Positions 11,933-58,517 of a stretch of DNA of 64,000 nucleotides are shown in pieces. A program made the translations under genes and the position numbers. The notes under the pieces are model-generated. The model ran no database searches, was not told where the DNA came from, and was given only the letters and a program-made list of their open reading frames with translations. Positions within the stretch are counted from its first letter, which is position 1, and each line of letters starts with the position of its first letter. The stretch is from Escherichia coli (GTDB taxonomy: Bacteria; Pseudomonadota; Gammaproteobacteria; Enterobacterales; Enterobacteriaceae): NCBI RefSeq assembly GCF_044647545.1, contig NZ_CP172818.1; one strand, given 5' to 3'.

Positions 11933-13192
11933 ATGCTAACATCCTTTAAACTTCATTCATTGAAACCTTACACTCTGAAATCATCAATGATTTTAGAGAT
12001 AATAACTTATATATTATGTTTTTTTTCAATGATAATTGCATTCGTCGATAATACTTTCAGCATAAAAATATATAATATCACTGCTATAGTTTGCTTATTG
12101 TCACTAATTTTACGTGGCAGACAAGAAAATTATAATATAAAAAACCTTATTCTTCCCCTTTCTATATTTTTAATAGGCTTGCTTGATTTAATTTGGTATT
12201 CTGCGTTTAAAGTAGATAATTCGCCATTTCGTGCTACTTACCATAGTTATTTAAATACTGCCAAAATATTTATATTTGGTTCTTTTATTGTTTTCTTGAC
12301 ACTAACTAGCCAGCTAAAATCAAAAAAAGAGAGTGTATTATACACTTTGTATTCTCTGTCATTTCTAATTGCTGGATATGCAATGTATATTAATAGCATT
12401 CATGAAAATGACCGCATTTCTTTTGGTGTAGGAACGGCAACAGGAGCAGCATATTCAACAATGCTAATAGGGATAGTTAGTGGCGTTGCGATTCTTTATA
12501 CTAAGAAAAATCATCCTTTTTTATTTTTATTAAATAGTTGCGCGGTACTTTATGTTCTGGCGCTAACACAAACCAGAGCAACCCTACTCCTGTTCCCTAT
12601 AATTTGTGTTGCTGCATTAATAGCTTATTATAATAAATCACCCAAGAAATTCACTTCCTCTATTGTTCTACTAATTGCTATATTAGCTAGCATTGTTATT
12701 ATATTTAATAAACCAATACAGAATCGCTATAATGAAGCATTAAATGACTTAAACAGTTATACCAATGCTAATAGTGTTACTTCCCTAGGTGCAAGACTGG
12801 CAATGTACGAAATTGGTTTAAATATATTCATAAAGTCACCTTTTTCATTTAGATCAGCAGAGTCACGCGCTGAAAGTATGAATTTGTTAGTTGCAGAACA
12901 CAATAGGCTAAGAGGGGCATTGGAGTTTTCTAACGTACATCTACATAATGAGATAATTGAAGCAGGGTCACTGAAAGGTCTGATGGGAATTTTTTCCACA
13001 CTTTTCCTCTATTTTTCACTATTTTATATAGCATATAAAAAACGAGCTTTGGGTTTGTTGATATTAACGCTTGGCATTGTGGGGATTGGACTCAGTGATG
13101 TGATCATATGGGCACGCAGCATTCCAATTATCATTATATCCGCTATAGTCCTCTTACTCGTCATTAATAATCGTAACAATACAATTAATTAA
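11933..13192 (+). CDS. waaL: O-antigen ligase
   Basis: 419 aa polytopic membrane protein, AT-rich codon usage; position after waaC; length equals K-12 WaaL. Confidence 0.9.
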   Translation: MLTSFKLHSLKPYTLKSSMILEIITYILCFFSMIIAFVDNTFSIKIYNITAIVCLLSLILRGRQENYNIKNLILPLSIFLIGLLDLIWYSAFKVDNSPFRATYHSYLNTAKIFIFGSFIVFLTLTSQLKSKKESVLYTLYSLSFLIAGYAMYINSIHENDRISFGVGTATGAAYSTMLIGIVSGVAILYTKKNHPFLFLLNSCAVLYVLALTQTRATLLLFPIICVAALIAYYNKSPKKFTSSIVLLIAILASIVIIFNKPIQNRYNEALNDLNSYTNANSVTSLGARLAMYEIGLNIFIKSPFSFRSAESRAESMNLLVAEHNRLRGALEFSNVHLHNEIIEAGSLKGLMGIFSTLFLYFSLFYIAYKKRALGLLILTLGIVGIGLSDVIIWARSIPIIIISAIVLLLVINNRNNTIN

Positions 13193-13206
13193 GAATAAAC
13201 AAGTTT

Positions 13207-13232
13207 AAGAAGTGAGTTAAAACTCACTTCTT
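13207..13232. terminator. Perfect palindrome between convergent waaL and waaU (putative bidirectional terminator)
   Basis: aagaagtgagtt-aa-aactcacttctt inverted repeat overlapping the waaU stop codon. Confidence 0.4.
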
Positions 13233-14297
13233 ATCTATACAACTTAATCTCTTTACTGAATTAGTTAAAGTTTCAGTATCGATATCTTTTACCGTATATG
13301 TTGGGGATACTATTTGTATAGATTTATGATGATTCGGGGACCAAATTAAATGCGAGGGATATTCCGGAGTACGTGAATTAGGGTAAAATGCAAGCGTTGG
13401 TTTATGATAAGCCGCAGCGATATGAACAAGAGCTGTATCAACAGAAATGACAAAATCACTATACTTGGTCAACGCAACGGTATAAATAAACTCATCAAAT
13501 GGTAGTGTTTCGATTTCAAGTATTGGTATTGTCAATAAATCTTGCGGTAACCCGGTAAATATAATCCGATAATTTTCAAAGTGTGTTTTCACTTCTTGAT
13601 ATATAACTTTTATTTGCTCAAACGTAAGACGGCATATTTTTTTTGCACCTAATGGATTAATAATGACTATTCTTGTATCTCCAATAAATTCTTTTATTTT
13701 ATCTTCAACATCTACTGGTAAATGCAAGTCGTAGTTGGTGGAAAATTTACCCTCACCATAAATATGCTTCAGTATTTCTATTGCTCGTGTACTCATATGT
13801 TCTTTTAAACATTCATCGTGGGGATGGTAAAATGAATAGTAACGCTTATACCAATGATCAAAACCCAGAATGTAAGAATCTTTTAAACTTGATAATATTA
13901 AGCTATGCTTAAATGAGGGCATAGTTTCAAAGGGGTCTAATACAATATCGAACTGTAAATCCCGCAGATGCTTACATAGAGTAAGCATTTCAAGAAAACC
14001 GGTTGATTCTTTAATACAGAACTCAAATATATTTTTATTATTAGAGAGAAATTCCCCACCCTTTCTATTTGTGAGAAGAGTTATTTTAACCCCTTTACTA
14101 TAAAGTTCACGATAAATCGAACTTAATACAATTAGATCACCAAGTTTATTATTATCATGAATAATAAGGCATGATTTAACTTGTGCTGGATCTGTAATTT
14201 GATTATTTATTTTATTACGAAATAAAAAAGAAAGGAAATTAATCTTGATTTTGTTTATATAAAATCTTTTCTTTTTGTGAAAAGTTCCTAAGCGCAT
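13224..14297 (-). CDS. waaU: LPS core heptosyltransferase IV (RfaK/WaaU, K-12 type)
   Basis: 357 aa ORF, GT9-like; last gene of waaQ operon; length equals K-12 WaaU. Confidence 0.85.
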   Translation of the reverse strand: MRLGTFHKKKRFYINKIKINFLSFLFRNKINNQITDPAQVKSCLIIHDNNKLGDLIVLSSIYRELYSKGVKITLLTNRKGGEFLSNNKNIFEFCIKESTGFLEMLTLCKHLRDLQFDIVLDPFETMPSFKHSLILSSLKDSYILGFDHWYKRYYSFYHPHDECLKEHMSTRAIEILKHIYGEGKFSTNYDLHLPVDVEDKIKEFIGDTRIVIINPLGAKKICRLTFEQIKVIYQEVKTHFENYRIIFTGLPQDLLTIPILEIETLPFDEFIYTVALTKYSDFVISVDTALVHIAAAYHKPTLAFYPNSRTPEYPSHLIWSPNHHKSIQIVSPTYTVKDIDTETLTNSVKRLSCIDKK

Positions 14298-14329
14298 TTT
14301 TATACCATATTATTTTAGTTTCAGGATGA

Positions 14330-15181
14330 TTAATTAGCATAAGAATCGGTTGAAGTTCTATATTGCATTTTTTTTCTTGTCATATCTTTTGATTCTTCTG
14401 CACTGATGTCTTGAAGTTTAATAAATGGAATTACATCGTAAGAAATAGCTGTATCATCTGATAAATTATAAATATTAATATCTTTTACATTATCATGCAT
14501 AAAACGAAAAAATGGCAATATTTTGAATAAATCCCTACTTAATTCCGAGGGCATGGGATTTTTATTCTCATCATAGAAACGAGAACAGCTACCCGTTAAA
14601 TCAAGACCAGAACAAATAATCCGCGCATACTTAAGTGAATATGCGATTTGAATTGCAGCAAAGGCAATAGTATGGCATGAGCAATAACCAAGACTAATGT
14701 CCTTGCAAAATCCAACCAGACGACCTTTTTTAGACAACGGTACAGAGATCAGCAGTTCTTTGTGAATCTGTCTCAAAATATTAAATTTAATCTTCTTTAT
14801 AAAACCACCTTTTTCCCGACGGTAAAAGGACCGTAATACGAGGCAGTTCTGGAGGATATAAAGTTTATCTTCTTTGGAAGCGTGTTCATAAACGTCAACG
14901 TTTACTATGGTATAACGACTTCTCTGGCTAAATTTATAAAAATCATCACGACGCTGATGTAAAAATCGGACATCTGTAAGTACATATATAAAAGGAACGA
15001 TATTATTACTTAACAGATATTGCGCAGAACCATTGACAGCAATAATATCCTTTGTTCGTAATACTGACAAAGGTGTTTTTTGCGATGTAGGGCCCGAAAG
15101 AAAAATAATAACATCATCAGATATTTTATTTTCAATCAGGTTTTCAACATCTTTTTTGTCAATGTATCTAATATTCTTCAT
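14330..15181 (-). CDS. waaZ: LPS core biosynthesis protein WaaZ (KdoIII-associated)
   Basis: 283 aa ORF; position and length as in K-12 waa cluster. Confidence 0.8.
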   Translation of the reverse strand: MKNIRYIDKKDVENLIENKISDDVIIFLSGPTSQKTPLSVLRTKDIIAVNGSAQYLLSNNIVPFIYVLTDVRFLHQRRDDFYKFSQRSRYTIVNVDVYEHASKEDKLYILQNCLVLRSFYRREKGGFIKKIKFNILRQIHKELLISVPLSKKGRLVGFCKDISLGYCSCHTIAFAAIQIAYSLKYARIICSGLDLTGSCSRFYDENKNPMPSELSRDLFKILPFFRFMHDNVKDINIYNLSDDTAISYDVIPFIKLQDISAEESKDMTRKKMQYRTSTDSYAN

Positions 15182-15251
15182 GATAAACCTGTGAAATAAA
15201 TAACTCCGCTTAAAACTGTCCTGGTGAAGACATGTAATTGTGGGATTTTTT

Positions 15252-15950
15252 TTAGCGCGCTGGTTTCCCTTTCAAACGCCGCATAAAATTGCGCATTTTT
15301 TTACGATATACTAAAAGATAATAGCCTAGATCTCTAATCTCATTTTTAATACCGTAATGACGCTCTAAGTCAATACGATCTTTCGCTTTACGCTGCGCTG
15401 AAGCACGCTTTCCGGAGAGATCGATAATTCGAACCTCACCATTTTTTATAATGAAGTTACCACGATGGGGGTCGCCAGAAACCATGCCATGTTGATGTAA
15501 GGCATTAATTGATTGCTGAATTTTATTTTTTAGCGCATCATCAATATCGGGCATATCACACAACTCTATGCCATCAATATACTCGATGATCATGATATAA
15601 GTATGGACAAAACGTAAGGTTTTCCGTTCAGCCAATAAATAAAAGTCATTGAGTGTATTTAACCCTTCATTTCGTACTTTTTGGGTTTGCTCAAAAAGGC
15701 GTTCGTAATAATCACCTTTTAACAGAGACTTAAAGAAACGTTCGTTACGCTTAACTTTCGGAGAAAAAACCTTAAGAATCAATTTACCGTAATCGGTATC
15801 AATAAGCATAACTTTTGTATCATCAATAGAACGAAAAACCTTGATGATATTTATATTATAAGACAAGAAGTCATTTAATACATTGAGGTACTTTGAATTG
15901 TTTTCATCGGTAAAAACAACCAAGTCTTTGATCTTGCTCTTCTGAATCAT
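15252..15950 (-). CDS. waaY: LPS core heptose(II) kinase
   Basis: 232 aa ORF, kinase-like (HGDPHRGNF); position and length as K-12 WaaY. Confidence 0.85.
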   Translation of the reverse strand: MIQKSKIKDLVVFTDENNSKYLNVLNDFLSYNINIIKVFRSIDDTKVMLIDTDYGKLILKVFSPKVKRNERFFKSLLKGDYYERLFEQTQKVRNEGLNTLNDFYLLAERKTLRFVHTYIMIIEYIDGIELCDMPDIDDALKNKIQQSINALHQHGMVSGDPHRGNFIIKNGEVRIIDLSGKRASAQRKAKDRIDLERHYGIKNEIRDLGYYLLVYRKKMRNFMRRLKGKPAR

Positions 15951-15967
15951 AATAAACCAGTTAAATG

Positions 15968-16984
15968 TTATTTACGGTAATATTTTCGGCAAAGATAACA
16001 GACTCCTGCTATAATTCCTGAGATATAATGATGTTGCACTAAAAGATGTTTATATCTTTTTTTAAATTCAATAATTGATTTCGCATCTCGTGGAGAGTCA
16101 TCTTTCCAGGGGGAATTTTCTAAAGCTATTTTATAGTATTTTACCGATGGATAAATTGCCCATTTGTGCCACGGTTTAGTTGCACCTGTATAATGAATAA
16201 GAAGAGTACTTTCTGTAATCAGCTTTTTATAGTTTTGATGTGTTTTGTCTTTTAATTCACTTTTAATTGTATAAATTGTATTGTACTCACGAGGCAAAAA
16301 TAATGTCATCCCTTTCAGTAAGACATTCATAACATCCTGATCAGGGTATTTATAAACATTATCTTTACTCATAAGAATAGACAACGCTTTTTCTGTTAGT
16401 TTTGCGTCAGCCCATTTTTTTAAGTCTAAATAAACGACACCGGAATTAAAGTACTGCCCAAGTAATTCAGGATCAGACAACCTGGATACCGCCTTTTCTT
16501 GCATTGGCTCAACATCTTTAACAACAGCAGCAACCGCTCCATTTAAACCCAGATGTAATAGTTGGCTAATATCGCCTTTACAAACAACATCTGCATCAAG
16601 ATAAAGCAAACGATCAAGCGTTAAACCCAATAATTGAAATGCAAATAAACGGAAGTACATTGCTCTTGACCAGACCTGTGTACAAGGCAAGCACTGGAGC
16701 TTATCAGTGTTAATTCTATATAACGTGATTCTTAATTGGTTTTGCTCTGCAAGCTTTGCAATTTTTTGAAAAAAACCATCATTATAAACATCAGCAATAA
16801 TATAAAAATCAAGATTAATATGTCGATTATTTAGGACAATTGATGTGATGGAAACACCTACACCATCAAGATAATTAGCATCGACACCATAGGCAACATT
16901 TAAACATTCAGAAGTATTTATATTAGCTAGCCGAAAATCCCAGGCTTTAACTTTATCTATCTCTATGGCAGGAAATGAGTCCAC
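15968..16984 (-). CDS. waaJ: LPS alpha-1,2-glucosyltransferase (GT8; RfaJ, called WaaR in Heinrichs nomenclature)
   Basis: 338 aa ORF, GT8 family with DxD; position and length as K-12. Confidence 0.85.
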   Translation of the reverse strand: MDSFPAIEIDKVKAWDFRLANINTSECLNVAYGVDANYLDGVGVSITSIVLNNRHINLDFYIIADVYNDGFFQKIAKLAEQNQLRITLYRINTDKLQCLPCTQVWSRAMYFRLFAFQLLGLTLDRLLYLDADVVCKGDISQLLHLGLNGAVAAVVKDVEPMQEKAVSRLSDPELLGQYFNSGVVYLDLKKWADAKLTEKALSILMSKDNVYKYPDQDVMNVLLKGMTLFLPREYNTIYTIKSELKDKTHQNYKKLITESTLLIHYTGATKPWHKWAIYPSVKYYKIALENSPWKDDSPRDAKSIIEFKKRYKHLLVQHHYISGIIAGVCYLCRKYYRK

Positions 16985-17023
16985 AATGCTACCCTTATAT
17001 CATTACTTTATAGTTTCCCAGTT

Positions 17024-18043
17024 TTAATGCTTTATCTTTTCAATAAAATAAAAAAGATAGTTGCTAAATCCTTTTAGATATCTATGCTTTTTAAGCATAT
17101 GTTTTGCGCTATATCTTAATTGATTGCTATTGTTCGGTTTCAGCAACGCCGTATTCTTCCATGGCGAAGCATTTTTTGCCTCCATAAAGGCTTGTGATAC
17201 AGGATAATCCCAGGCCCAATCATGCCAGGGCTTGGTTGGCCCGATATAATGGATAAAAATAGTATCGTTGGTTACTGGGTTTATAAAGCTTTCTTTGAGT
17301 TGATAATTTAAGCTGAACTGGGTGTTATATTTAATATCAGCGAAAATAAGTTTATCCGCCAGCAACATATTTAACACATCCTGATCAGGATGTGTTATTT
17401 TTTTGATTATTTCTGGCTCATTTAGCATTGCAATAGCTCGTGCAGAAACCTGCTGAGCCGCCCATTGGGCAGTATTAATCAATAAAAAACCGGAGTTAAA
17501 GTAACCTTTAGCAATTCCCGCAACACCTAACGAATGGGCGCGTTTTTCCCACCAGTCAGCTTGCCCTTCTGTAACAACCATTGCGACTTTATCGTCAGGA
17601 AATGAGAAATTAATTAGTGGCTCAATAGTCCCCTGACAAATGATATCTGCATCCAGATAAAGGACTTTAGGCGCCTTATTAATAAAGTAATCTGCAATAA
17701 CAAAACGAAAATATATTGCATGAGTCCAATTCTTAGTGCTAGGCAATGAGCGCAGTCGATCACCATTAATCAGATATATTTTAATTCTGGTTTTATACTG
17801 CAACGCCAGGGCATCAAAATACTTACGATCATCATCACCAAAATAATCAGTAAAAATATGGAAACACAATCGACTTCCTTCATTATATTTTAATATTGAA
17901 GCAATCGAAATTCCGCAACCAAATAGAAAGTTTTTGTCAGTTCCATAAGCGATGTCCAGACAAAGATTTTCTGTTTCTACTTTATGATCATAATCAATAA
18001 CTGAATTAAGAAACTCAGTTTCCTGGAAAAACACCTGCTGCAT
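17024..18043 (-). CDS. waaO: LPS alpha-1,3-glycosyltransferase (GT8; RfaI/WaaO)
   Basis: 339 aa ORF, GT8 family, paralogous to waaJ; position and length as K-12. Confidence 0.85.
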   Translation of the reverse strand: MQQVFFQETEFLNSVIDYDHKVETENLCLDIAYGTDKNFLFGCGISIASILKYNEGSRLCFHIFTDYFGDDDRKYFDALALQYKTRIKIYLINGDRLRSLPSTKNWTHAIYFRFVIADYFINKAPKVLYLDADIICQGTIEPLINFSFPDDKVAMVVTEGQADWWEKRAHSLGVAGIAKGYFNSGFLLINTAQWAAQQVSARAIAMLNEPEIIKKITHPDQDVLNMLLADKLIFADIKYNTQFSLNYQLKESFINPVTNDTIFIHYIGPTKPWHDWAWDYPVSQAFMEAKNASPWKNTALLKPNNSNQLRYSAKHMLKKHRYLKGFSNYLFYFIEKIKH

Positions 18044-19122
18044 TATTTCCTCCGGGAAATAGCAGAAATAATTACCTTATGTAATCTATCGTAATACTTC
18101 GATTGGTAAAATTCATCGATCGACGCAGGAATTTTTTCATGTTCGATATGAATTTCACCTGCTATATATTTATTTAGAAGAGTTACAAAACCAGCAATAT
18201 CTCCCGGTTGATACAGATGGCCATTGACATCAGGTTGAATAATGTCAGCAGGCCCGGAGACACAATCGGCACTGATACAAGGAATCCCCCACGACAAGGC
18301 TTCAAGTAGGGTCATTGGGAAACCTTCAAAAGATGACGTGAGCAATAACGCACTCACTTTTTCAATATCTTGCTGGACCAATTCCCAGGGATATTGTTGC
18401 CAACCATACCAGACAATTCGATCATCAATATTTAATTCTCTACCATAAGCCTGGCATTTTTCGAAATCGGAGCCATCACCCAATACATGGAGTTTCCAGT
18501 TACCTTTCGCTTGTGATAAGCCATCAAGCAGGTCTTTAACTCTTTTCTGGCCTTCAAATTTCATACGCCCAACATAAATAAACGTTGCCGTTTCACCTTC
18601 CTCGGGCGCGGGAATGACTGAGTCTTTAGTTTCGACGGGATTAAAAATAACATTTATCGTCGATTCTGCTACACCTCGATTAATCATTTGCTGTTTAATG
18701 CCAGAGCTGATTGCTAAATGATAGTCGGCACAGGTGATATATTCAGCATGTTTTTTGTGATCTAAAGAAAAATGTGGCCATGAAAATACTGGCATATCAA
18801 TTCCTGATTTTTTACGTGCTTTTGCGGCAAACAGGCAGGAGATCACATCAATACAAATAACGATATCTGGTTGGTACTCCTGAAGCCATTTACTTAGAGC
18901 ATGAATATGTTTCGCCCGACGCAAAAAACCTAAACGAATATTGGAAAATGAACATGAGTATTTAATACCTTCCAGCCATCCCTTATCCATTTTGTCATTA
19001 CGACAAAAGAAAAACATTTCACTTTGGATATGTTGTTGCCTGAAGGTAGTAATAACATCACGGATGACAGTTTCCATGCCGCCAAATCCAGAAACAGCTT
19101 CGCCGATAAACGCTATTTTCAT
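18043..19122 (-). CDS. waaB: LPS alpha-1,6-galactosyltransferase (GT4)
   Basis: ORF 18043..19152 trimmed to MKIAFIG start giving 359 aa; GT4 family; position as K-12. Confidence 0.85.
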   Translation of the reverse strand: MKIAFIGEAVSGFGGMETVIRDVITTFRQQHIQSEMFFFCRNDKMDKGWLEGIKYSCSFSNIRLGFLRRAKHIHALSKWLQEYQPDIVICIDVISCLFAAKARKKSGIDMPVFSWPHFSLDHKKHAEYITCADYHLAISSGIKQQMINRGVAESTINVIFNPVETKDSVIPAPEEGETATFIYVGRMKFEGQKRVKDLLDGLSQAKGNWKLHVLGDGSDFEKCQAYGRELNIDDRIVWYGWQQYPWELVQQDIEKVSALLLTSSFEGFPMTLLEALSWGIPCISADCVSGPADIIQPDVNGHLYQPGDIAGFVTLLNKYIAGEIHIEHEKIPASIDEFYQSKYYDRLHKVIISAISRRK

Positions 19123-19165
19123 AGAAACTCTCATTAATTGAGTAAAACTCACTGTTTTAACGGTT

Positions 19166-20101
19166 TTATTTGTCTATAAAATCAGAAACAATCGTTGACA
19201 TCATTTTATCTGGACTGAATTTATATAAACTATCATAATCCATTGGTTTAACAGATGAGTTAATAAAATACTCTAACTTATCCCAATCATCATGACCTAT
19301 TATAAAAAAGCGAGATTCACTATAGATTTCTGAACCAAATACATTTATATTATTAGTAATTAATTTTTTATTGAAAAATAGTGCCTCAAGTATACGAAGA
19401 GTCCAGCCAGATTGGTTTTCTTTGGTTATATCAACAATTATATTAGCATTTAATGTTCTTCTAATATTCTCTTCATAAGATATTTGTTTTTCAATCAAAT
19501 ACTTTGAAGTCGTAGATGATGTCTTATCTTTGACAACATTAAAATCTAGCTTACATCCTAGTGTTGTTAATCTCTCGGCTAACTCATTAATTATTTGAAG
19601 ACGCCCTTTATCACGACCAAGGAAAAAACATATTGGCTGGCTGTTATTTTTGTCAGATAAACTATAATTTCTAATTTCATCCATTCCTATAGGAAAAAAT
19701 TGTTCTATTGCCTTGATCTTTTCATTCCCTATAAATCTATGCTCAAAATCATATATAATATCGAAATAATTCGCGTTATCAAGAATAAAATCTTCGCCAA
19801 CAGTATTTCTTAGAAGCAAAACTTTATGACAGTTAATATTTTTTAATATTTGTTTATTGATACCTTTATTAACAACACTGTCATTAATGATAATTATGTC
19901 ATCTTTTTTAATATCATTGAGGTAATGCTTGATGAATAATCGCCCCAGCCATGCATTATCCATCCCTATTTTTGATATTTTTTTATTAATCCAGTTATAT
20001 TTTTTTGGTGTTGTTATATTTTTTATCTTGTACTTTTTTTTCAGGTACTGAATCATTTTTAATTCATAATCTGCAACCCAATTTATAAAATAAATAGTCA
20101 T
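19166..20101 (-). CDS. waaS: LPS core biosynthesis protein WaaS
   Basis: 311 aa ORF, very AT-rich; position and length as K-12 WaaS. Confidence 0.8.
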
Positions 20102-20137
20102 AATAAAGTTAGTTCCAGTACATACTAATAAATATTT

Positions 20138-20935
20138 TTATAATCCTTTGCGTTGTGTTCGCTCTTTAATACGCTCGGCCTTAACGCTTGCCATGTTCAA
20201 TAAATTCTGTTCAAGAGACAATATTTTGCGTAAAGGCATCCCAAAATACACTTTCATAAACCGCCAGATATCCCGCTGAGTCAGGCCGATATTCATCGAA
20301 GAAAAATAAAGCCCAATAAGATCTTTATCGCGCCAACGACGTGGAACGCGCGTGCGAAGCTGCGCCCGGTGCAGGTCAATTACTGAAATTTTTAACTCCT
20401 CTTCCTTACCGGAAAAAGGCAAGTGCAGCAGGAAATGACAGATATAACAGTCACGGTGGTTAATGCCCGCAGCATGCATATCGCGCACCATCGTCGCGAC
20501 ACGCTTAATAAGCATACGCTTTACGCGAACATCTGGTGGGTTGGTCGCCCAGTCAGCACAGTAATCTTCCAGACTGATGGTTGGTGTCAGATCTTCGGTA
20601 ATAATAAACGAGGTTCTGGTCAGCGGATTAATGCCTTTTTCGCCGAATGCCACCCCATACATAGTATCAACGCCGACATCCCGCAGTCGATGAATCGCAT
20701 TCCATTCGCGGTCTGCGCCTAATACTGGCATCCGCAATGAGAGTAAATTTTTGATTATCTCTTTCAGGGTCGTGCCGCGATGCCATTTGAGAAAATAGCT
20801 TTTGCCCGCCATTTCAAAGCGCAGAGTGCGGCGAGTTTCCAGTTCACGAAATACCTCACCCTGCAAGGTTTTAACTTCCTCAAAAGGATCTTTACCGCGC
20901 CATAACGTGGCAAACGGCTCTTTAAGTTCAACCAT
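20138..20935 (-). CDS. waaP: LPS core heptose(I) kinase
   Basis: Trimmed to [14 protein letters not shown] start giving 265 aa; kinase motifs ([11 protein letters not shown]). Confidence 0.9.
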
Positions 20936-22052
20936 CCAGACCACCCGTTATGATGTCCGCTGCTTTCTCTGGCAGACTGTATAAATCTTGTGTATCAGCA
21001 TAATGTCGCGCATTTTCTGCCCAGGCCTGGCGCAATGAAGATTGCGTTAACGCTTTGCGTAAAATCTCATTCAATGTTTCCTGGCGGAATGGCTCAGCAA
21101 TAGCCTCGCCGCAATTGGCGTCAACAATATAATGCGCATAGCCACAAACGGCTGTTGTTAGTACCGGTAATCCTGCAGTAATCGCTTCCAGCAGCACAAT
21201 TCCCGCCGCTTCCTGGTAGGCAGGATGAAGTAATAAATCCGCCGCCGCCATTAATTCCGAGACATCGTTGCGCCCCGAGAAGAAGTGAACATTACTGCGC
21301 ACGCCGCGTTTTTCTGCCAGCGCCTCAAATTTTCGCGGTTTATCCTGCCCAACAACATATAGTAATGTGTTGTGGCGCAGCGAATCCGGTAACGAAGCAA
21401 GTGCTTCAATGGAACGATCGACACCTTTACGCGTGAAGTCTGAACCGACCTGCAACAATAAATATTGTTGTTCGGTTATTCCATTCTTCTTACGGAAGAT
21501 TTCACGGCTATTCGCTGGTTGCTGGCTATATTTACGATCAGGATAAATCCCCGGTGGCAGAATATGAAAACGCTCCGCTTCAGTCTGATAATGTTTCTGG
21601 AAATCGGCGATTTGCTTATCTGTCAGCATCAGCAGCTGTGTCGGCTTGCCCTGTTCGAAGGTTGCCCGCTCAAAGGCGGCATAATGGCGATAACGTGACG
21701 TCAGGCGATAGAAAAAGCCTTTCTCCTGCGCTACTTTCTCGGCATAACAAACATCAGCGGCATAATAAACGTCCAGCCCCGGCATTTTATTAAATCCAAC
21801 GACTCTATCGACGGGGTATTCACGTAAATGTTTTTGCACCCAGGCAAAATATTCCGCATTGCGCCCGTGATTGGTATGCGATTTAACCGGCACTTTGATC
21901 AGTTCAAATACATCAGGGCATTCGCCTTCCCACGACTGGGTATAAACCCGAACATGATGACCTCGGGCGGCAACTGTCTGAGCAATACGCATAAAATCGC
22001 GCTGCAAACCGCCAAAGGGAAAATATTTATATAAACAAAAAGCAACGATCAT
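20928..22052 (-). CDS. waaG: LPS glucosyltransferase I (GT4)
   Basis: 374 aa ORF; overlaps waaP start and waaQ stop (translational coupling). Confidence 0.92.
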
Positions 22053-23107
22053 AACGACGTACCTGTCGTGGAGGAGGGAAGTAATTTATCGACAGCTGCA
22101 ATGACATCTGCCGCCGGAATAACCGAAAGATACATCTCATTTCGGTCACGCTGATCGCGCGTTGGCATTTCCCGGTAATCTCCCGCCCAGAATTGAATCA
22201 TGTTATTTGACCAGGGACGCCAGAAAATATGGTCTGTCGCACCAAACAGCGATATCAGTGGCGTATTAACTGCAGCGGCAATATGCGCCGGTGCGGAATC
22301 AACGCCAATAAACAGCTGCGCATGATCGATTAACGCACCAAGTTCCGGGAAGGTCACCTTTCCGGCCAGTGCCGTTACTGGTGGCGTCTGGCATCCCTGC
22401 GCAATTTCATTGACGCAGGCCAGATCGTCTTTATCTGGGCCGGACGTCAGAACGACTTCATAACCACGAGCATGTAAGGCATCAATCACAGCGGAAAACT
22501 TGGCGTTGTCCCAGCATTTGAAGATTTGCCGCGCCGTAGGTTGGATAACCACATAATTTTGTCCAACACCAGCGTGATCAAGTTCGCGACGCATACGTTT
22601 CCAGCTTGCAGGCGGGTAACTCATGGTTGTCTGCTTCACCAACGATTCAAGTCCCAATGGCGTCAGCACGGATAAGTTACTTTCCACCACATTTCCACCC
22701 TGCAACGGCACCAAATGAGTGAAACTATTACGCCAAAAAGCAGACTGCCGATGATGATAATCCTGGGAAATTTTCACACGGGCATTTAATAAGCGAACCA
22801 GTATAGCAACCATCCATTGATCGGTAAGATTAACGATAAGGTCATACTTATTGGCACGTAATATCTTGATGAGATGGAAAAAGTTGGCAATTTTTTCTGA
22901 GGCTTTTGCTTTTTTATTTTTTATGCCGTAGAGCGCGTTAATCTCTGGATTTTCAGACAGGATCGGGATGGTGTCCTGATAAAGCAGCACATCGATTTTT
23001 GCGTCAGGGTAATTTTTTTTCAGCGAACTAATGACGGGAGTAGTTAATAACATATCCCCATGAAAACGCATCTTAATGAGCAAAATTCTTCGAAATGGCT
23101 TATCCAC
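22049..23107 (-). CDS. waaQ: LPS heptosyltransferase III
   Basis: GT9 family; first gene of long operon; ORF starts with GTG at 23107 (352 codons); true start may be the in-frame TTG 24 nt downstream (344 aa). Confidence 0.88.
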   Translation of the reverse strand: MDKPFRRILLIKMRFHGDMLLTTPVISSLKKNYPDAKIDVLLYQDTIPILSENPEINALYGIKNKKAKASEKIANFFHLIKILRANKYDLIVNLTDQWMVAILVRLLNARVKISQDYHHRQSAFWRNSFTHLVPLQGGNVVESNLSVLTPLGLESLVKQTTMSYPPASWKRMRRELDHAGVGQNYVVIQPTARQIFKCWDNAKFSAVIDALHARGYEVVLTSGPDKDDLACVNEIAQGCQTPPVTALAGKVTFPELGALIDHAQLFIGVDSAPAHIAAAVNTPLISLFGATDHIFWRPWSNNMIQFWAGDYREMPTRDQRDRNEMYLSVIPAADVIAAVDKLLPSSTTGTSL

Positions 23108-23156
23108 AAGTAACTCTTTTTGTTGAGATTATCCGATTAAGGTGAAGCAGAAAAAG

Positions 23157-23168
23157 CACGCTACCGCC
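23157..23168 (-). promoter_or_regulatory. ops element (RfaH recruitment site) within the JUMPstart leader of the waaQ operon
   Basis: Minus-strand sequence GGCGGTAGCGTG matches the ops consensus GGCGGTAGnnTG, located ~50 nt upstream of the waaQ start inside a ~410 bp untranslated leader. Confidence 0.75.
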
Positions 23169-23519
23169 CCAGGCTCAACAGCTACCTGAATACTGATACC
23201 GCACTGATATTGACGCGCTAGTGTATCACTTCTTTCGCGGCAATCCGACCCGAATGATTTTTAAGCACATTGTTGATTTTCAATAAAGAAATCAATCAAA
23301 TAAAATCATTAGCAACCATATTCTTTTACTGTTGCTCTGCGATTCCTTCCTGCACGTACTGCAGAAATCAATGAATCGCATAAAAATACAAAAAAAGTAT
23401 AGATGTTCAGCAAGAATTGGCGGGTAAATTGCTATTTAAGTCAAAAACGGGAAAAGTAATGGTAAAGCCACAGCTAAATACATAGAATCCCCAGCACATC
23501 CATAAGTCAGCTATTTACT

Positions 23520-25284
<1,765 letters not shown>

Positions 25285-25322
25285 CGTTTATGCCGGATGG
25301 TATGCCATCCGGCTCGCATCAA

Positions 25323-26132
25323 TTACTTCTGGCACTGCCGACAATAAAACGTTGCCCGCTGCGCATGTTTAGTCGCCACAATTGGCGTACCGCACACCCG
25401 ACACGGCTCGCCTTTTCGCCCGTAAACCTGCAATTCCTGCGCGAAATAGCCCGGTTTACCATCACTTTGCAGAAAATCTTTCAGCGTTGTACCACCCTGC
25501 TCAATCGAACGCAGCAACACCGCTTTAATCACCCGAGCTAACAATTCACACTCTGCCAGCGACAGTGATGACGCCAGCCGATCCGGATGGATCCCCGCAG
25601 CAAACAGAGATTCGCTGGCATAGATATTCCCTACGCCTACCACCAGCTTGTTATCCATCAGCCATGGTTTAATCGCCGTTTTTTTCTTCGCGCACTTCTG
25701 ATGCAGGTACTCACCGTTGAAATCGTCGCTAAGCGGCTCCGGTCCAAGATGGGCCAGCACGTTGTGCCCTTCCAGCTCTTTGGTCCACAGCCAGGCACCA
25801 AAGCGGCGCGGATCGGTGTAGCGCAGCACTTTACCGTTGCTCATCACCAAATCAACATGGTCATGCTTTTCAGGGGGAAGTTCTTCTGGAAGGATGCGCA
25901 GGCTGCCAGACATCCCCAAATGAATGATAATCCAGCCCTCAGGCAGCTCCAGCAGCAGATATTTAGCCCGCCGCTGCACGCTAAGCACTGGTTGGTCGCT
26001 TAAACGGTAGATCTCTTCTGAAACCGGCCAGCGCAAGCGTCCGTTGCGCACCACCGCATGAAGAATGGTTGCACCAACGAGATGCGGTTCTATGCCGCGA
26101 CGGCTGGTTTCAACTTCGGGTAATTCAGGCAT
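25323..26132 (-). CDS. mutM: Formamidopyrimidine-DNA glycosylase
   Basis: 269 aa ORF starting MPELPEVE with C-terminal zinc finger (CRVCGTPI...CRQCQ). Confidence 0.95.
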
Positions 26133-26183
26133 AGCATCTCCAGGAATGAACAGATGCAGTCAATATGGGGGCAAGCAGATAAC

Positions 26184-26210
26184 AAAAAACCCCGCCGGAG
26201 CGAGGTTTTT
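26184..26210 (-). terminator. Putative rho-independent terminator after rpmG
   Basis: GC-rich hairpin flanked by A-run and T-run between the rpmG stop and mutM start. Confidence 0.5.
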
Positions 26211-26229
26211 CGTTACATCAAAGCGAGAA

Positions 26230-26400
<171 letters not shown>

Positions 26401-26417
26401 TTATTTCCTCTAAGTAC

Positions 26418-26675
<258 letters not shown>

Positions 26676-26870
26676 TTAGCTCGAGCTTCGTATGGGGTAT
26701 TGGCGCCTCGTCAGGCTTTACAGCCCGGTCATCGCAGTTCTATGTGAACTCTCGATTGCCAGGCCCAAATGCCAAACCCGAGATTCTCAAAGGTGGCGTA
26801 GTATACGCTGACTCAGCGATGTGCTCAAGTCCCGAACAGACAAAGATCCCGAAGGATCGCGCATAGCGGG

Positions 26871-27539
26871 TTAAATCCAGCCGCGTTCGGCAAAAGAAAC
26901 ATACTCTCCACGCCCAATTACGATATGGTCGAGCACGCGTAAATCCATGAACTGACAACTCTTTATTATCCGTTCAGTAATGAGTTTATCCGCTTTACTG
27001 GGTTCAGCACAACCCGAAGGGTGATTATGTGCAAGGATCAGCGCCGAGGCATTTATTTTTATCGCTTCGCGGATAATTTCCCGAGGATGGACTTCAACAT
27101 GGTTTAGCGTGCCGGAAAAAAGACGGCTATGCGTTATAACCCGGTGTTGTGAGTCGAGAAAGATCACCATAAAGATCTCCCGCTCCTCGCCCGTAAGCTG
27201 GCTTTGTAAAAATTCCCTCGTCATCTCCGGGCTGAGTAAAGGGCTTTCTTCACGCATCCGCACGTTGTAGTAACGCCGCGCCAGTTCGGCAATCCCCTTT
27301 AACTGGGCGAATTTCGCCACGCCAATTCCATGAACGCCACTAAACTGTTCATATTCAGAGGTTAACAAGCCATAAAGAGAGCCGAAATTCTCCAGCATCT
27401 CTTTTGCCAGGGTTAATACATCTTTACCGCGCGTTCCGGTACGCAGAAATAGCGCCAGCAGCTCGACATCCGTTAAGGCGCTAATACCAAACTTCAGCAT
27501 TTTTTCGCGCGGCATCAACAGCTGTGCATTGTTTTTCAC
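26871..27539 (-). CDS. yicR: UPF0758 family protein YicR (RadC-like JAB domain)
   Basis: ORF starts with GTG at 27545; likely start is the in-frame GTG two codons downstream ([13 protein letters not shown]..., 222 aa); JAMM-like HNHPSG motif. Confidence 0.88.
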
Positions 27540-27710
27540 CTTCACCTCCTTTGTGGTGCTCGCATCCTGTCATAGCCGTTCCGTTAAATCGACGGCCAGT
27601 TTTCAATCCTGGAAAGCGCCTCGCAAAGTGATTCTCAGGTGAAGGCACGACAACAAAAGTATTGTGATAAAATCGCCAACTTCTGGTGTCACCCAACAGG
27701 AAAAATCATC

Positions 27711-28931
27711 ATGAGCCTGGCCGGTAAAAAAATCGTTCTCGGCGTCAGCGGCGGTATTGCTGCCTATAAAACCCCTGAACTGGTGCGTCGTTTGCGCGAT
27801 CGCGGGGCCGACGTCCGCGTAGCCATGACCGAAGCGGCAAAAGCCTTTATCACCCCACTTAGCTTGCAGGCGGTTTCTGGTTATCCCGTTTCCGACAGTC
27901 TGCTGGACCCGGCAGCCGAAGCCGCTATGGGCCATATTGAGCTGGGTAAATGGGCTGATTTAGTGATTCTCGCCCCTGCCACGGCAGATTTGATTGCCCG
28001 TGTTGCTGCCGGAATGGCGAATGACCTGGTATCGACGATTTGTCTGGCTACACCTGCGCCTGTAGCCGTGCTCCCCGCCATGAACCAGCAGATGTACCGT
28101 GCCGCTGCCACGCAGCATAATTTAGAGGTGCTTGCTTCCCGTGGTTTGCTCATCTGGGGGCCAGACAGCGGCAGTCAGGCTTGTGGTGATATCGGCCCAG
28201 GGCGAATGCTCGATCCGTTAACCATTGTGGATATGGCGGTGGCGCATTTTTCGCCCGTCAACGACCTGAAACATCTGAACATTATGATTACCGCCGGTCC
28301 GACGCGTGAACCGCTCGATCCCGTGCGTTATATCTCTAATCACAGCTCCGGCAAGATGGGTTTTGCTATCGCCGCCGCCGCAGCCCGTCGTGGCGCGAAC
28401 GTCACGCTGGTATCAGGTCCGGTTTCACTACCGACGCCACCGTTTGTTAACCGTGTTGATGTGATGACCGCGCTGGAAATGGAAGCCGCCGTGAATGCAT
28501 CTGTACAGCAGCAAAATATTTTTATCGGTTGCGCCGCCGTGGCGGATTATCGCGCAGCTACCGTGGCCCCAGAGAAAATCAAAAAGCAGGCCACGCAGGG
28601 TGATGAATTAACAATAAAAATGGTTAAAAACCCCGATATCGTCGCAGGCGTTGCCGCACTAAAAGACCATCGACCCTACGTCGTTGGATTTGCCGCCGAA
28701 ACAAATAATGTGGAAGAATACGCTCGGCAAAAACGTATCCGTAAAAACCTTGATCTGATCTGCGCGAACGATGTTTCCCAGCCAACTCAAGGATTTAACA
28801 GCGACAACAACGCATTACACCTTTTCTGGCAGGACGGAGATAAAGTCTTACCGCTTGAGCGCAAAGAGCTCCTTGGCCAATTATTACTCGACGAGATCGT
28901 GACCCGTTATGATGAAAAAAATCGACGTTAA
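27711..28931 (+). CDS. coaBC: Bifunctional phosphopantothenoylcysteine decarboxylase / synthetase
   Basis: Trimmed to [20 protein letters not shown] start giving 406 aa; flavoprotein N-domain plus CoaB C-domain. Confidence 0.95.
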
Positions 28932-29367
28932 GATTCTGGACCCGCGCGTTGGGAAGGAATTTCCGCTCCCGACTTATGCCACCTCTGGCTCTGCCGGACT
29001 TGACCTGCGTGCCTGTCTCGACGACGCCGTAGAACTGGCTCCGGGTGACACTACGCTGGTTCCGACCGGGCTGGCGATTCATATTGCCGATCCTTCACTG
29101 GCGGCAATGATGCTGCCGCGCTCCGGATTGGGACATAAGCACGGTATCGTGCTTGGTAACCTGGTAGGATTGATCGATTCTGACTATCAGGGCCAGTTGA
29201 TGATTTCCGTGTGGAACCGTGGTCAGGACAGCTTCACCATTCAACCAGGCGAACGCATCGCCCAGATGATTTTTGTTCCGGTAGTACAGGCTGAATTTAA
29301 TCTGGTGGAAGATTTCGACGCCACCGACCGCGGTGAAGGCGGCTTTGGTCACTCTGGTCGTCAGTAA
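28909..29367 (+). CDS. dut: dUTP diphosphatase
   Basis: 152-codon [18 protein letters not shown]...; overlaps the 3' end of coaBC by 23 nt. Confidence 0.95.
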
Positions 29368-29473
29368 CACATACGCATCCGAATAACGTCATAACATAGC
29401 CGCAAACATTTCGTTTGCGGTCATAGCGTGGGTGCCGCCTGGCAAGTGCTTATTTTCAGGGGTATTTTGTAAC

Positions 29474-30070
29474 ATGGCAGAAAAACAAACTGCGAAAAGG
29501 AACCGTCGCGAGGAAATACTTCAGTCTCTGGCGCTGATGCTGGAATCCAGCGATGGAAGCCAACGTATCACGACGGCAAAACTGGCCGCCTCTGTCGGCG
29601 TTTCCGAAGCGGCACTGTATCGCCACTTCCCCAGTAAGACCCGCATGTTCGATAGCCTGATTGAGTTTATCGAAGATAGCCTGATTACTCGCATCAATCT
29701 GATTCTGAAAGATGAGAAGGACACCACAGCGCGCCTGCGTCTGATTGTGTTGCTGCTTCTCGGTTTTGGTGAGCGTAATCCTGGCCTGACCCGCATCCTC
29801 ACTGGTCATGCGCTAATGTTTGAACAGGATCGCCTGCAAGGGCGCATCAACCAGCTGTTCGAGCGTATTGAGGCGCAGTTGCGTCAGGTATTGCGTGAAA
29901 AGAGAATGCGTGAGGGTGAAGGTTACACCACCGATGAAACGCTGCTGGCAAGCCAGTTGCTGGCATTTTGTGAAGGTATGCTGTCACGCTTTGTCCGCAG
30001 CGAATTTAAATACCGCCCGACGGATGATTTTGACGCCCGCTGGCCGCTAATTGCCGCGCAGTTGCAGTAA
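29474..30070 (+). CDS. slmA: Nucleoid occlusion factor SlmA (TetR family)
   Basis: Trimmed to [16 protein letters not shown] start giving 198 aa; TetR-type HTH. Confidence 0.93.
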
Positions 30071-30108
30071 TATGACGTCCGGCATGATTATTCATCCAGC
30101 GAATATTT

Positions 30109-32742: not shown

Positions 32743-33567
32743 ATGAACGAACATCATCAACCTTTTGAAGAGATACGGCATTATGGCACTGAAGGGCAAG
32801 AATTTTGGTCAGCGAGAGAATTGGCACCGTTACTGGATTATCGGGACTGGCGCAATTTTCAAAAGGTACTGGCCCGCGCGACTCAAGCGTGCGAAGCCAG
32901 CAATCAAGCTGCATCTGACCATTTCGTTGAAACCACCAAAATGGTTGTATTAGGTTCAGGGGCTCAACGAGAACTTGAAGATGTTCATCTCTCCCGCTAT
33001 GCCTGTTACCTGGTAGTACAAAACGGCGACCCTGCGAAACCGGTTATTGCAGTAGGGCAAACTTATTTTGCTATCCAGACCCGACGGCAGGAGCTGGCTG
33101 ACGATGAAGCTTTCAGGCAACTTCGTGAAGACGAAAAGCGTCTTTTTCTGAGAAATGAGTTGAAAGAACATAACAAACAATTAGTTGAGGCAGCGCAGCA
33201 AGCTGGGGTAGCGACAGCTATCGATTTCGCCATATTTCAGAATCATGGTTACCGGGGACTGTATGGTGGATTAGATCAGAAAGCCATCCATCAGCGGAAG
33301 GGGCTGAAAAAGAGTCAGAAGATCCTGGATCATATGGGTTCAACAGAACTGGCGGCTAATCTCTTTCGAGCTACCCAAACAGAAGAAAAACTCAAGCGGG
33401 ATGGCGTGAATTCAAAACAGCAAGCTAACACCACACACTTTGACGTGGGTCGCAAGGTGAGGCAAACCATTCAGGAACTTGGCGGAACCATGCCTGAGGA
33501 GTTGCCGACCCCGCAGGTCAGCATCAAGCAGTTGGAAAACAGTGTAAAAATTACAGAGAAAAAATAG
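32743..33567 (+). CDS. dinD: DNA damage-inducible protein D
   Basis: Trimmed to MNEHHQPFEEIRHYG start giving 274 aa; synteny. Confidence 0.88.
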   Translation: MNEHHQPFEEIRHYGTEGQEFWSARELAPLLDYRDWRNFQKVLARATQACEASNQAASDHFVETTKMVVLGSGAQRELEDVHLSRYACYLVVQNGDPAKPVIAVGQTYFAIQTRRQELADDEAFRQLREDEKRLFLRNELKEHNKQLVEAAQQAGVATAIDFAIFQNHGYRGLYGGLDQKAIHQRKGLKKSQKILDHMGSTELAANLFRATQTEEKLKRDGVNSKQQANTTHFDVGRKVRQTIQELGGTMPEELPTPQVSIKQLENSVKITEKK

Positions 33568-33857: not shown

Positions 33858-36246
<2,389 letters not shown>

Positions 36247-51580: not shown

Positions 51581-51675
51581 GGAAGATCGTCGTCTCCGGT
51601 GAGGCGGCTGGACTTCAAATCCAGTTGGGGCCGCCAGCGGTCCCGGGCAGGTTCGACTCCTGTGATCTTCCGCCA
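51581..51675 (+). tRNA. selC: tRNA-Sec (selenocysteine, anticodon UCA)
   Basis: 95 nt GGAAGATCGTCGTCTCCGGTGAGGCGGCTGGACTTCAAATCCAGTTGGGGCCGCCAGCGGTCCCGGGCAGGTTCGACTCCTGTGATCTTCCGCCA; 8-bp acceptor stem, long variable arm, UCA anticodon. Confidence 0.97.
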
Positions 51676-58064: not shown

Positions 58065-58517
58065 TTAATGCAGCCAGTGAACGCCCTCGGCAGGCTGAAA
58101 GAACGCGTTATAGCGCATCTGAAAAGCATTAATATCCTGCATTTCAGGTTCGGTTTCGCGCAGAAAACCCAGCGCCAGCCTGACCTGAGCATCAGTAATC
58201 GGCGCGGCAAGGCGGGCTTTTTGTAAAATCCGATGCCATTGCAGCATGTTCTGTTCGCTACCATCGACAATGACAATTTGCCAGATGAGCAACACCTGCG
58301 CGGCGTTTTGCAGGTGCGACTCATCCGGGCGATGCAAATAACGTAAAAATTCGTCACCGGCTGACTTTCCCATTTGATCGACCATCGACTCCACGGGTAC
58401 GACATCGATGTTCAGCCGATCGCTGAGACGGCGAATCGCTTTTCTGGCCCCGGATGTCAGCACCCGAAAACCAATCACAAACACTACCGCCAGCGTGGCG
58501 AGCATTATCCAGATCAT
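58065..58517 (-). CDS. yicN: DUF1198 family protein YicN
   Basis: ORF 58065..58544 trimmed to MIWIMLATLAVVFVIG start giving 150 aa. Confidence 0.85.
   Translation of the reverse strand: MIWIMLATLAVVFVIGFRVLTSGARKAIRRLSDRLNIDVVPVESMVDQMGKSAGDEFLRYLHRPDESHLQNAAQVLLIWQIVIVDGSEQNMLQWHRILQKARLAAPITDAQVRLALGFLRETEPEMQDINAFQMRYNAFFQPAEGVHWLH

Follow-up and report, generated by a model that had tools for sequence, protein, structure and literature searches.

The spacer between the divergent genes waaQ and waaA raises the question of whether an ops motif lying in it serves as a working recruitment site for the elongation factor RfaH, and in what kind of leader it would do so. We addressed this question in a 64,000-nt stretch of Escherichia coli DNA (the window). 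An element of this kind accounts for full transcription of the long, AT-rich, H-NS-bound lipopolysaccharide (LPS) core operon of E. coli, on which outer-membrane integrity, resistance to serum and antibiotics, and attachment of O antigen depend. The spacer measured 412 bp (23108-23519). An earlier note on this DNA had described a divergent region of about 410 bp with a long leader; the size of the region was borne out, whereas the leader proved short, with a 5' UTR of only about 90-106 nt. The features of the locus are collected in Table 1.

Table 1. Features of the waaQ leader and its surroundings in the window. The promoter, the U5 run and the Shine-Dalgarno-like motif were read from the sequence.
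Feature	Position	Strand	Remarks
waaQ (rfaQ) CDS	22049..23107	-	GTG start, 352 aa; RefSeq annotation of identical DNA
waaA (Kdo transferase)	23520..24797	+	Divergent; outside the RfaH unit
Operon waaQ-G-P-S-B-O-J-Y-Z-U	13224..23107	-	10 genes, about 10 kb
12-bp hairpin between convergent waaU and waaL	13206..13233	-	Probable operon end
waaQ promoter, extended -10 TGnTACACT (TGATACACT)	23228-23220	-	TG 23228-23227, hexamer TACACT 23225-23220
waaQ/RirA transcription start	23213	-	Aligned with the 5' end of MG1655 rirA (b4760); placed by homology
Alternative waaQ start	23195	-	CFT073 RNA-seq TU start 4239213 converted to the window
waaQ 5' UTR	23108..23213	-	106 nt to GTG; 88 nt by the CFT073 estimate
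RirA counterpart	23141..23213	-	73 nt in K-12; here 5 substitutions and 1 missing T (manual count)
JUMPstart element	23157..23195	-	Transcript +19 to +57; Rfam RF01707
Classical JUMPstart hairpin	23170..23188	-	CAGGU/GCCUG stem, +26-30 with +40-44, 9-nt loop; Rfam structure line
ops element GGCGGTAGCGTG	23157..23168	-	Non-template strand; +46 to +57 from 23213
Extended leader hairpin	23155..23205	-	+9 to +59; JUMPstart stem lies inside it, most of the RNA ops copy is paired; MFE fold; function putative
U5 run	23151..23155	-	Directly after the extended hairpin; terminator-like geometry
Weak Shine-Dalgarno-like AAGAG	23114..23118	-	6 nt before GTG; conserved in other leaders

Scanning of both strands placed the exact ops 12-mer GGCGGTAGCGTG on the strand that encodes waaQ (minus), at 23157-23168, where the earlier note had located it. 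The motif was unique in the 64-kb window even with up to one mismatch allowed, against a chance expectation for a random 12-mer of about 0.008 per 128 kb over both strands, or of 0.31 at up to one mismatch according to the scan tool. A gathering-threshold Rfam search returned a single JUMPstart match in the window (RF01707), which covered model positions 1-38 of 38 and scored 55.2 bits (gathering score 35; E 3e-11 for the local search and 6.4e-10 for the whole window); ops forms its 3' end, so that the motif is indeed embedded in a JUMPstart sequence, as had been claimed. A further Rfam hit in the spacer, to MIR5284 at 23308-23410, was dismissed as a chance match (21 bits, gathering score 93, E 0.53).

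The ops sequence matched the required GGCGGTAGnnTG, with the RfaH-contact bases C3-G8 intact and the pause determinants at consensus (T11 at 23158, G12 at 23157, G2 at 23167). In published work, C3-G8 contact RfaH, T11 and G12 are needed for pausing, a hairpin in the non-template DNA at ops flips out T6, and RfaH reads ops as non-template DNA, not as RNA (PMC5995543). The consensus elemental pause (G-10, Y-1, G+1; PMC5995543) is matched by G2, T11 and G12 at -10, -1 and +1, and the predicted RNA 3' end of the pause is U11 at 23158 (+56). The 8-mer core GGCGGTAG occurred three times in the window against 1.09 expected. The two additional copies, at 34063-34070 and 58484-58491, were rejected as ops sites, being without T11 and/or G12 and neither lying in a leader: one reads GGCGGTAGCGAC and is antisense to yicG, the other reads GGCGGTAGTGTT and lies within a DUF1198 coding sequence, and the T11/G12 pause determinant is absent from both.

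The candidate waaQ promoter is an extended -10 element without a good -35. A generic sigma70 -35/-10 scan of the spacer returned weak sites only, no more than in shuffled sequences, and did not report the extended -10; the scan misses this promoter because there is no good -35. A terminator scan made no call anywhere in the spacer. The MG1655 annotation puts the K-12 gene rirA (b4760) at complement 3808166-3808238; its 5' end is 45 nt ahead of ops, and its first base comes directly 3' of GATACACTAGCACG. The window carries GTGATACACTAGCGCG followed by TCAATA, the same context as K-12, and the equivalent start was therefore placed at 23213, 7 nt after the end of the extended -10. The element with the form TGnTACA[C/A]T was found at a fixed distance upstream in 22/22 distinct waaQ leaders of the Enterobacteriaceae type (about 10 genera, among the matches listed). 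Read in this way, the extended -10 would be the waaQ promoter, with a sigma70 start near 23213. The start derived from CFT073 lies 18 nt away, and both estimates are upstream of ops, which would occupy +28 to +39 if transcription began at 23195 (27 nt from the TU start to ops). The earlier note had named a motif lying upstream of the mapped promoter as the outcome that would count against it; ops is downstream of the K-12-derived and the CFT073-derived start alike. The other ~300 bp of the spacer consists of the promoter, DNA upstream of it and promoter DNA of waaA. One natural strain has an IS1 in the spacer, with homology to the window ending at the position equivalent to 23269, some 56 nt ahead of the start; by inference only, this insertion suggests that the proximal ~56 bp may be enough as a promoter.

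Downstream, 49 nt separate the end of ops from the GTG start codon, which is +107 from 23213. The waaQ operon has been described as lacking a canonical ribosome-binding site (reviews among PMC5736990, PMC6358824, PMC8745692), and the window offers a weak AAGAG. In tblastn, WaaQ similarity in many genera extends back to residue 1 of the ORF that opens with GTG, usually 48-50 nt beyond ops. Between this GTG and the ATG further on, the substitutions that distinguish alleles affect third codon positions for the most part. Together, these two observations support the GTG start given by PGAP, which appears preferable to the later ATG of the curated MG1655 record.

Published RfaH data are available for CFT073, whose rfaQ leader equals that of the window: the sequence from promoter through ops to GTG is identical, the spacer is likewise 412 bp, and the ops 12-mer is the same. 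Across 490 aligned nt (spacer plus both gene starts) there were 2 differences, both outside the promoter-to-start-codon segment. Published CFT073 findings therefore apply to exactly this leader sequence. Data set S2A of that study lists for rfaQ an ops at 4239186-4239175, an RNA-seq-predicted transcription unit (TU) start at 4239213, a first gene starting at 4239125 and an 88-nt UTR (PMC9765446); converted to the window, these are 23168-23157 for ops, 23195 for the TU start and 23107 for the gene start. The same ops sequence is listed in Data sets S2A and S2B as an RfaH-bound leader ops, and the 12-mer is common to five RfaH-bound CFT073 leaders (PMC9765446). ChIP-seq revealed RfaH signal over the rfa operon that was gone in an rfaH deletion (Hustmyer et al. 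2022, PMC9765446). The same work found a sigma70 peak upstream of ops at the predicted start, H-NS/StpA coating of the rfa operon, and, without RfaH, RNA polymerase (RNAP) traversal of the operon at 0.1-0.34 or less of wild type (PMC9765446). The binding and traversal data, obtained on an identical leader, support the earlier claim of RfaH-dependent waaQ operon expression, and the start site, pausing and RfaH dependence would be expected in the present strain by transfer from K-12 and CFT073. For K-12, reviews likewise state that distal gene expression depends on RfaH (among PMC5736990, PMC6358824, PMC8745692). The operons behind the leader differ: the window carries K-12-type outer-core genes (waaS-B-O-J-Y-Z-U), whereas CFT073 carries R1-type genes.

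In K-12, the waaQ 5' UTR also gives rise to RirA, a 73-nt small RNA that contains JUMPstart and ops and shares one common transcription start with the waaQ mRNA (reviews PMC5736990, PMC6358824, PMC8745692). Its over-expression mimics an rfaH deletion, with reported inhibition of RfaH, and it binds RfaH with RNAP in an ops-dependent manner (reviews PMC5736990, PMC6358824, PMC8745692). The RirA ends used here are those of the MG1655 annotation and of the reviews, which cite Klein et al. 2016. The window counterpart was about 92% identical to K-12 RirA (manual count), with the -10 element and its spacing kept; a RirA-like transcript with its end at about 23141 is putative for this allele. The extended -10, start, JUMPstart, ops and T-run are homologous between the two leaders, with 49 consecutive bases through ops identical; the window has 4 substitutions in +5 to +15 and one T fewer in the run. 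In contrast, the two alleles differ strongly in the post-ops leader and in the central spacer, and their waaQ DNA is only 63-76% identical.

Alignment of the leader with other JUMPstart sequences, which the earlier note had proposed as a check, was carried out by scanning a species-level genome collection with a degenerate JUMPstart DNA pattern. The scan gave at least 120 loci, nearly all in Enterobacterales, among which the window copy is a typical member. We recognised the waaQ leaders among the listed loci by tblastn with the window WaaQ and WaaA. About 30 of the 120 listed loci precede a WaaQ homologue, mostly at 48-50 nt after ops and with a divergent waaA ~400 nt upstream, and they come from Escherichia, Citrobacter, Silvania, Pluralibacter, Kosakonia, Shimwellia, Cedecea, Intestinirhabdus and other genera. 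Like the other JUMPstarts (rfb, cps, hly, kps; 39 bp), the window element has a 5-bp stem, a 9-nt loop and ops at its 3' end. The variable pair of the stem was a standard one in 115 of the 120 listed loci (T-A 80, A-T 24, G-T 8, G-C 3) and mismatched in 5, so the classical JUMPstart stem covaries as in the Rfam family. Among the matches listed, this pair was T-A in 72/88 non-waaQ loci and A-T in 18/32 waaQ loci. The waaQ class thus has an A-U (or G-U, G-C) variable pair, whereas most other JUMPstarts have U-A; in addition, its 5' CAGTGC box lies 11 nt further upstream, adjoining the CAGTAT box, and its leader forms a longer conserved hairpin that is absent from the Rfam RF01707 model.

Within E. 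coli, the spacer was present at ≥99% identity to the window in 4437 of 5426 complete genomes, while a class at 80-90% identity comprised 956 genomes and included K-12; the window accordingly carries the majority E. coli spacer allele. A spacer alignment was made from the window, CFT073, K-12 and MLI108K1, the last being a third allele. The ~119 bp adjoining waaA were identical in the window, CFT073 and K-12, with few substitutions in MLI108K1, and the middle ~170 bp were heavily diverged except for one 38-bp island. A block of ~115 bp, comprising an A-rich upstream stretch, the extended -10, the start, JUMPstart, ops and the T-run, was nearly invariant, whereas the sequence around it was only 63-84% identical between spacer alleles. 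Within the 49 bases shared by the window and K-12, MLI108K1 had one G-U-compatible stem substitution, and divergence between alleles restarted right after the T-run. As judged from this alignment, the invariant block is evidence of selection on a regulatory unit. Constant amid a spacer and upstream of an operon that are both exchanged by recombination between core types, the block is a clean natural footprint of the functional unit.

These results identify the element, with a probability that we put at about 0.93, as the JUMPstart/ops site of the waaQGPSBOJYZU LPS-core operon, lying in a short 5' UTR. Homology predicts that sigma70 RNA polymerase starts near 23213 from the extended -10 promoter, reaches ops after about 56 nt and, as in the in vitro literature, stalls with U11 (23158) at the RNA 3' end. 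The paused complex would expose the ops hairpin on the non-template strand, where RfaH would bind, open and refold, remaining on the polymerase for the whole operon to the exclusion of NusG. Pausing, and premature termination assisted by Rho and H-NS, would then be suppressed by RfaH, whose KOW domain, once refolded, would recruit a ribosome to the poorly initiating waaQ start (GTG, AAGAG only). The expected outcome is full-length transcription of a 10-kb operon with an AT-rich distal 8 kb. The first ~73 nt of the transcript would also correspond to K-12 RirA, the ops-containing RNA reported to inhibit RfaH when over-expressed. The start, RfaH occupancy, RfaH dependence and the roles of the ops bases were established by others on identical or homologous sequence and would carry over to this locus; we infer ribosome recruitment at this particular start codon. 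Taken as a whole, the waaQ JUMPstart/ops is an intact, correctly placed and ordinary member of a characterised class, and as such already known. The gain here is correct annotation of the majority allele, namely its promoter, start, 5' UTR length, GTG codon and RirA counterpart.

The conserved extended hairpin of the waaQ leader is the sole thread beyond known RfaH biology left by the analysis. In the MFE fold of the first 73 nt, +16-22 pair with ops G2-A7, and +9-14 (AGUGCG) pair with ops C9-G12 and the following CU; two G-U pairs close the base of the extended stem. The single-sequence stability of the leader and of the RirA counterpart was no better than that of shuffled sequences (z = +0.89 and -0.46, respectively, the latter for the 73-nt fold), and structural claims therefore rest on comparative data only. 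Over 22 distinct leaders (about 10 genera, among the matches listed), the 12 extra pairs were formed in 97.7% of cells, compared with 29-53% in slid controls. Seven of the 12 positions in the 5' arm varied with pairing kept, six by one-sided changes (such as U-G to C-G and G-U to A-U, seen in Cedecea, Shimwellia and Enterobacter sp. Ag1) and one by a two-sided change (G-C to A-U); because ops supplies the 3' arm and is held constant on other grounds, this support is mostly one-sided. RNAalifold independently recovered the extended hairpin. The extended pairing appeared in the MFE fold of 20/21 listed leaders, against 6.5 ± 1.8 after shuffling of the upstream 28 nt, a control that overstates significance in that the leaders are phylogenetically related. 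The structure was derived from the window itself. T60-T64 were nearly invariant in the waaQ leader alignment (among the matches listed), and the U-run directly after the hairpin was interrupted or displaced in Kosakonia and Citrobacter amalonaticus. The annotated 3' end of K-12 RirA lies 8 nt past the U-run. The extended ops pairing was rejected as a general property of JUMPstarts: among 88 listed non-waaQ leaders, the consensus fold kept only the classical stem, and the extended pairing was modestly enriched in this group (38/87 listed, against 26.6 ± 3.3 in shuffles). Our literature search found no description of the extended hairpin; the original RirA report (Klein et al. 2016), which was outside that search, may already show one.

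The inner stem ends 11-12 nt upstream of the U11 pause 3' end. A spacing of 11-12 nt between stem and RNA 3' end resembles that of hairpin-stabilised (his-type) pauses. Whereas ops is classed as a backtrack-stabilised pause (PMC5995543), its native context in the window adds an RNA hairpin 11-12 nt behind the pause. A speculative proposal, which we consider unlikely as it stands, is that the hairpin of Enterobacteriaceae waaQ leaders, with the JUMPstart stem as its tip, might stabilise the pause or limit backtracking during RfaH loading and then, together with the U-run, attenuate transcription to yield RirA if RfaH loading fails. If true, the cis output (antitermination) and the trans output (an RfaH-titrating small RNA) of one element would be coupled. 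These points amount to a testable idea, not a finding, about the role of the JUMPstart RNA and the origin of the RirA 3' end.

The leader might primarily be an attenuator, its hairpin from +9 to +59 and the U-run forming an intrinsic terminator or processing signal that gives RirA when RfaH fails to load, while RfaH-modified polymerase reads through. This view, compatible with the JUMPstart/ops reading, we regard as possible though not probable. It draws on the geometry of the hairpin and U5, on the conservation and variation of the helix across genera, including the double change, on its independent recovery by RNAalifold and in the folds of nearly all listed leaders, on the near invariance of the T-run, and on the 73-nt K-12 RNA with the same 5' end; moreover, RfaH is reported to lower termination at some intrinsic terminators (PMC2871177). 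These points are offset by the unremarkable single-sequence z score of the 73-nt fold, the silence of the terminator scan in the spacer, the one-sidedness of the support imposed by ops as 3' arm, and the relatedness of the leaders behind the shuffle control. The broken or displaced U-runs, the annotated RirA end beyond the U-run instead of inside it, and the weak enrichment of the pairing in non-waaQ JUMPstarts also speak against it. Quite unlikely, in our judgement, is that the main product is the trans-acting RirA, titrating RfaH, with the role of ops in waaQ expression in cis being secondary. K-12 RirA is annotated at the homologous position, its over-expression phenotype and ops-dependent binding of RfaH with RNAP are on record, and the window counterpart is closely similar; however, the reviewed phenotypes come from over-expression, the cis need for RfaH at rfa was shown directly in CFT073 by ChIP and RNAP traversal (PMC9765446), the ops recognised by RfaH is non-template DNA and not RNA (PMC5995543), and JUMPstart/ops occupies the same position in many operons without a described small RNA.

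Extremely improbable, finally, is a chance or relic match without function, for example upstream of the real promoter or in untranscribed spacer. The surplus of GGCGGTAG copies, two of them non-functional look-alikes, is what such a reading can point to. It is opposed by the 39-nt covariance-model match with its E value of 3e-11, the invariance of the element between diverged alleles, its conserved placement before waaQ across genera, its position downstream of both start estimates, and the RfaH ChIP signal on the identical leader of CFT073.

The surroundings of the leader were in keeping with this function. The distal 8 kb of the operon had 29-40% G+C, against about 50-54% in the flanks, and a long AT-rich operon of this kind is typical of RfaH/H-NS targets. 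Among the window genes named via matched annotations there was no rfaH, whose presence elsewhere in the genome is assumed. The tRNA-Sec site was unoccupied in the window, whereas CFT073 has a genomic island there, which had been expected here as well.

The waa locus of the window is a mosaic. Positions 12000-20240 were 100% identical to K-12 (waaL, U, Z, Y, J, O, B, S and the 3' part of waaP), while 20242-30071 were 100% identical to an R1-core strain and only 63-84% to K-12, with the switch inside waaP. The R1-core strain FDAARGOS_497, whose locus has the same gene order as that of CFT073, was 100% identical to the window over waaQ, waaG and the 5' part of waaP. An assembly artefact at the K-12/R1 junction in waaP was considered and rejected: almost the same mosaic exists in complete genomes of natural strains (99.1% identity over 20 kb and 99.4% across the junction), and the junction is therefore attributed to recombination. 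The JUMPstart/ops leader travels with the waaQ-G-P segment.

Sequence comparison of the waa locus (window 12000-30071) indicated that it is a recombination mosaic, with a junction at about 20242, inside waaP. Positions 12000-20240, which carry K-12-type outer-core genes, showed 100% identity to K-12, and positions 20242-30071 showed 100% identity to the R1-core strain FDAARGOS_497. On this R1-like side, identity to K-12 was merely 63-84% over the 5' part of waaP, waaG, waaQ and the spacer between waaQ and the divergent waaA. Near-identical waa mosaics (99.1-99.4%) were found in the natural genomes HS-01, BS-04 and BS-01.

The waaQ start codon is annotated in two ways, as the ATG equivalent to window 23071 (344 aa) in the curated MG1655 record versus an upstream GTG at 23107 by PGAP. 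Cross-genus tblastn revealed similarity already at residue 1 of the GTG-initiated ORF, and the substitutions in the GTG-to-ATG segment (23071-23107, minus strand) fell mostly at third codon positions. For these two reasons, the GTG at 23107 is favoured over the ATG as the probable start of waaQ.

The coordinates of the features in and around the waaQ leader and elsewhere in the window are listed below. The extended RNA hairpin in the leader was backed by comparative pair counts across 22 waaQ leaders; when the same ops-pairing hairpin was tested in other JUMPstarts, it proved not to be general.

Features located in the window, with strand
Feature	Position	Strand	Remark
Extended RNA hairpin	23155-23205	-	RNA copy of ops paired with upstream leader sequence; conserved
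U-run	23151-23155	-	directly follows the extended hairpin
Island CAATGAATCGCATAAAAATACAAAAAAAGTATAGATGT	23369-23406 (38 bp)	+	kept in all E. coli spacer alleles compared
Further GGCGGTAG cores, within GGCGGTAGCGAC / GGCGGTAGTGTT	34059-34070 and 58480-58491	both -	
tRNA-Sec (selC)	51581-51671	+	

Both additional GGCGGTAG cores lack T11/G12, the ops bases needed for the RNA polymerase pause, and the first (34059-34070) lies antisense to yicG, the second (58480-58491) within a DUF1198 coding sequence. Because of the missing pause bases and these antisense or coding locations, they were rejected as ops sites and are regarded as look-alikes.

In the waaQ-waaA spacer, the 38-bp island sits in an otherwise heavily diverged middle part. 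MarA has been reported to bind in vitro to the kdtA (waaA) regulatory region (PMC12052159). In the natural isolate E. coli SW07163 (L006), an IS1 is inserted in this spacer at the equivalent of window ~23270. The waaQ-side homology of SW07163 ends ~56 nt upstream of the inferred waaQ transcription start, and the promoter, the JUMPstart and the ops block are left intact.

Downstream of selC, neither an integrase nor an island was found up to 63963, unlike in CFT073, which carries an island after tRNA-Sec; the ORFs in this interval encode MFS and EamA transporters, NlpA, DUF1198, a purine permease and adenine deaminase. FDAARGOS_497 (L001 19073-20361) contains an extra ~1.3 kb between slmA and pyrE with a gene for a 'reverse transcriptase family protein', and this segment of the otherwise identical strain is absent from the window, where the corresponding positions are 30071-30097. 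A 200-bp stretch (32812-33011), near dinD as judged by position in L002, showed ~62% identity to K-12, compared with 94-99% in the surrounding region.
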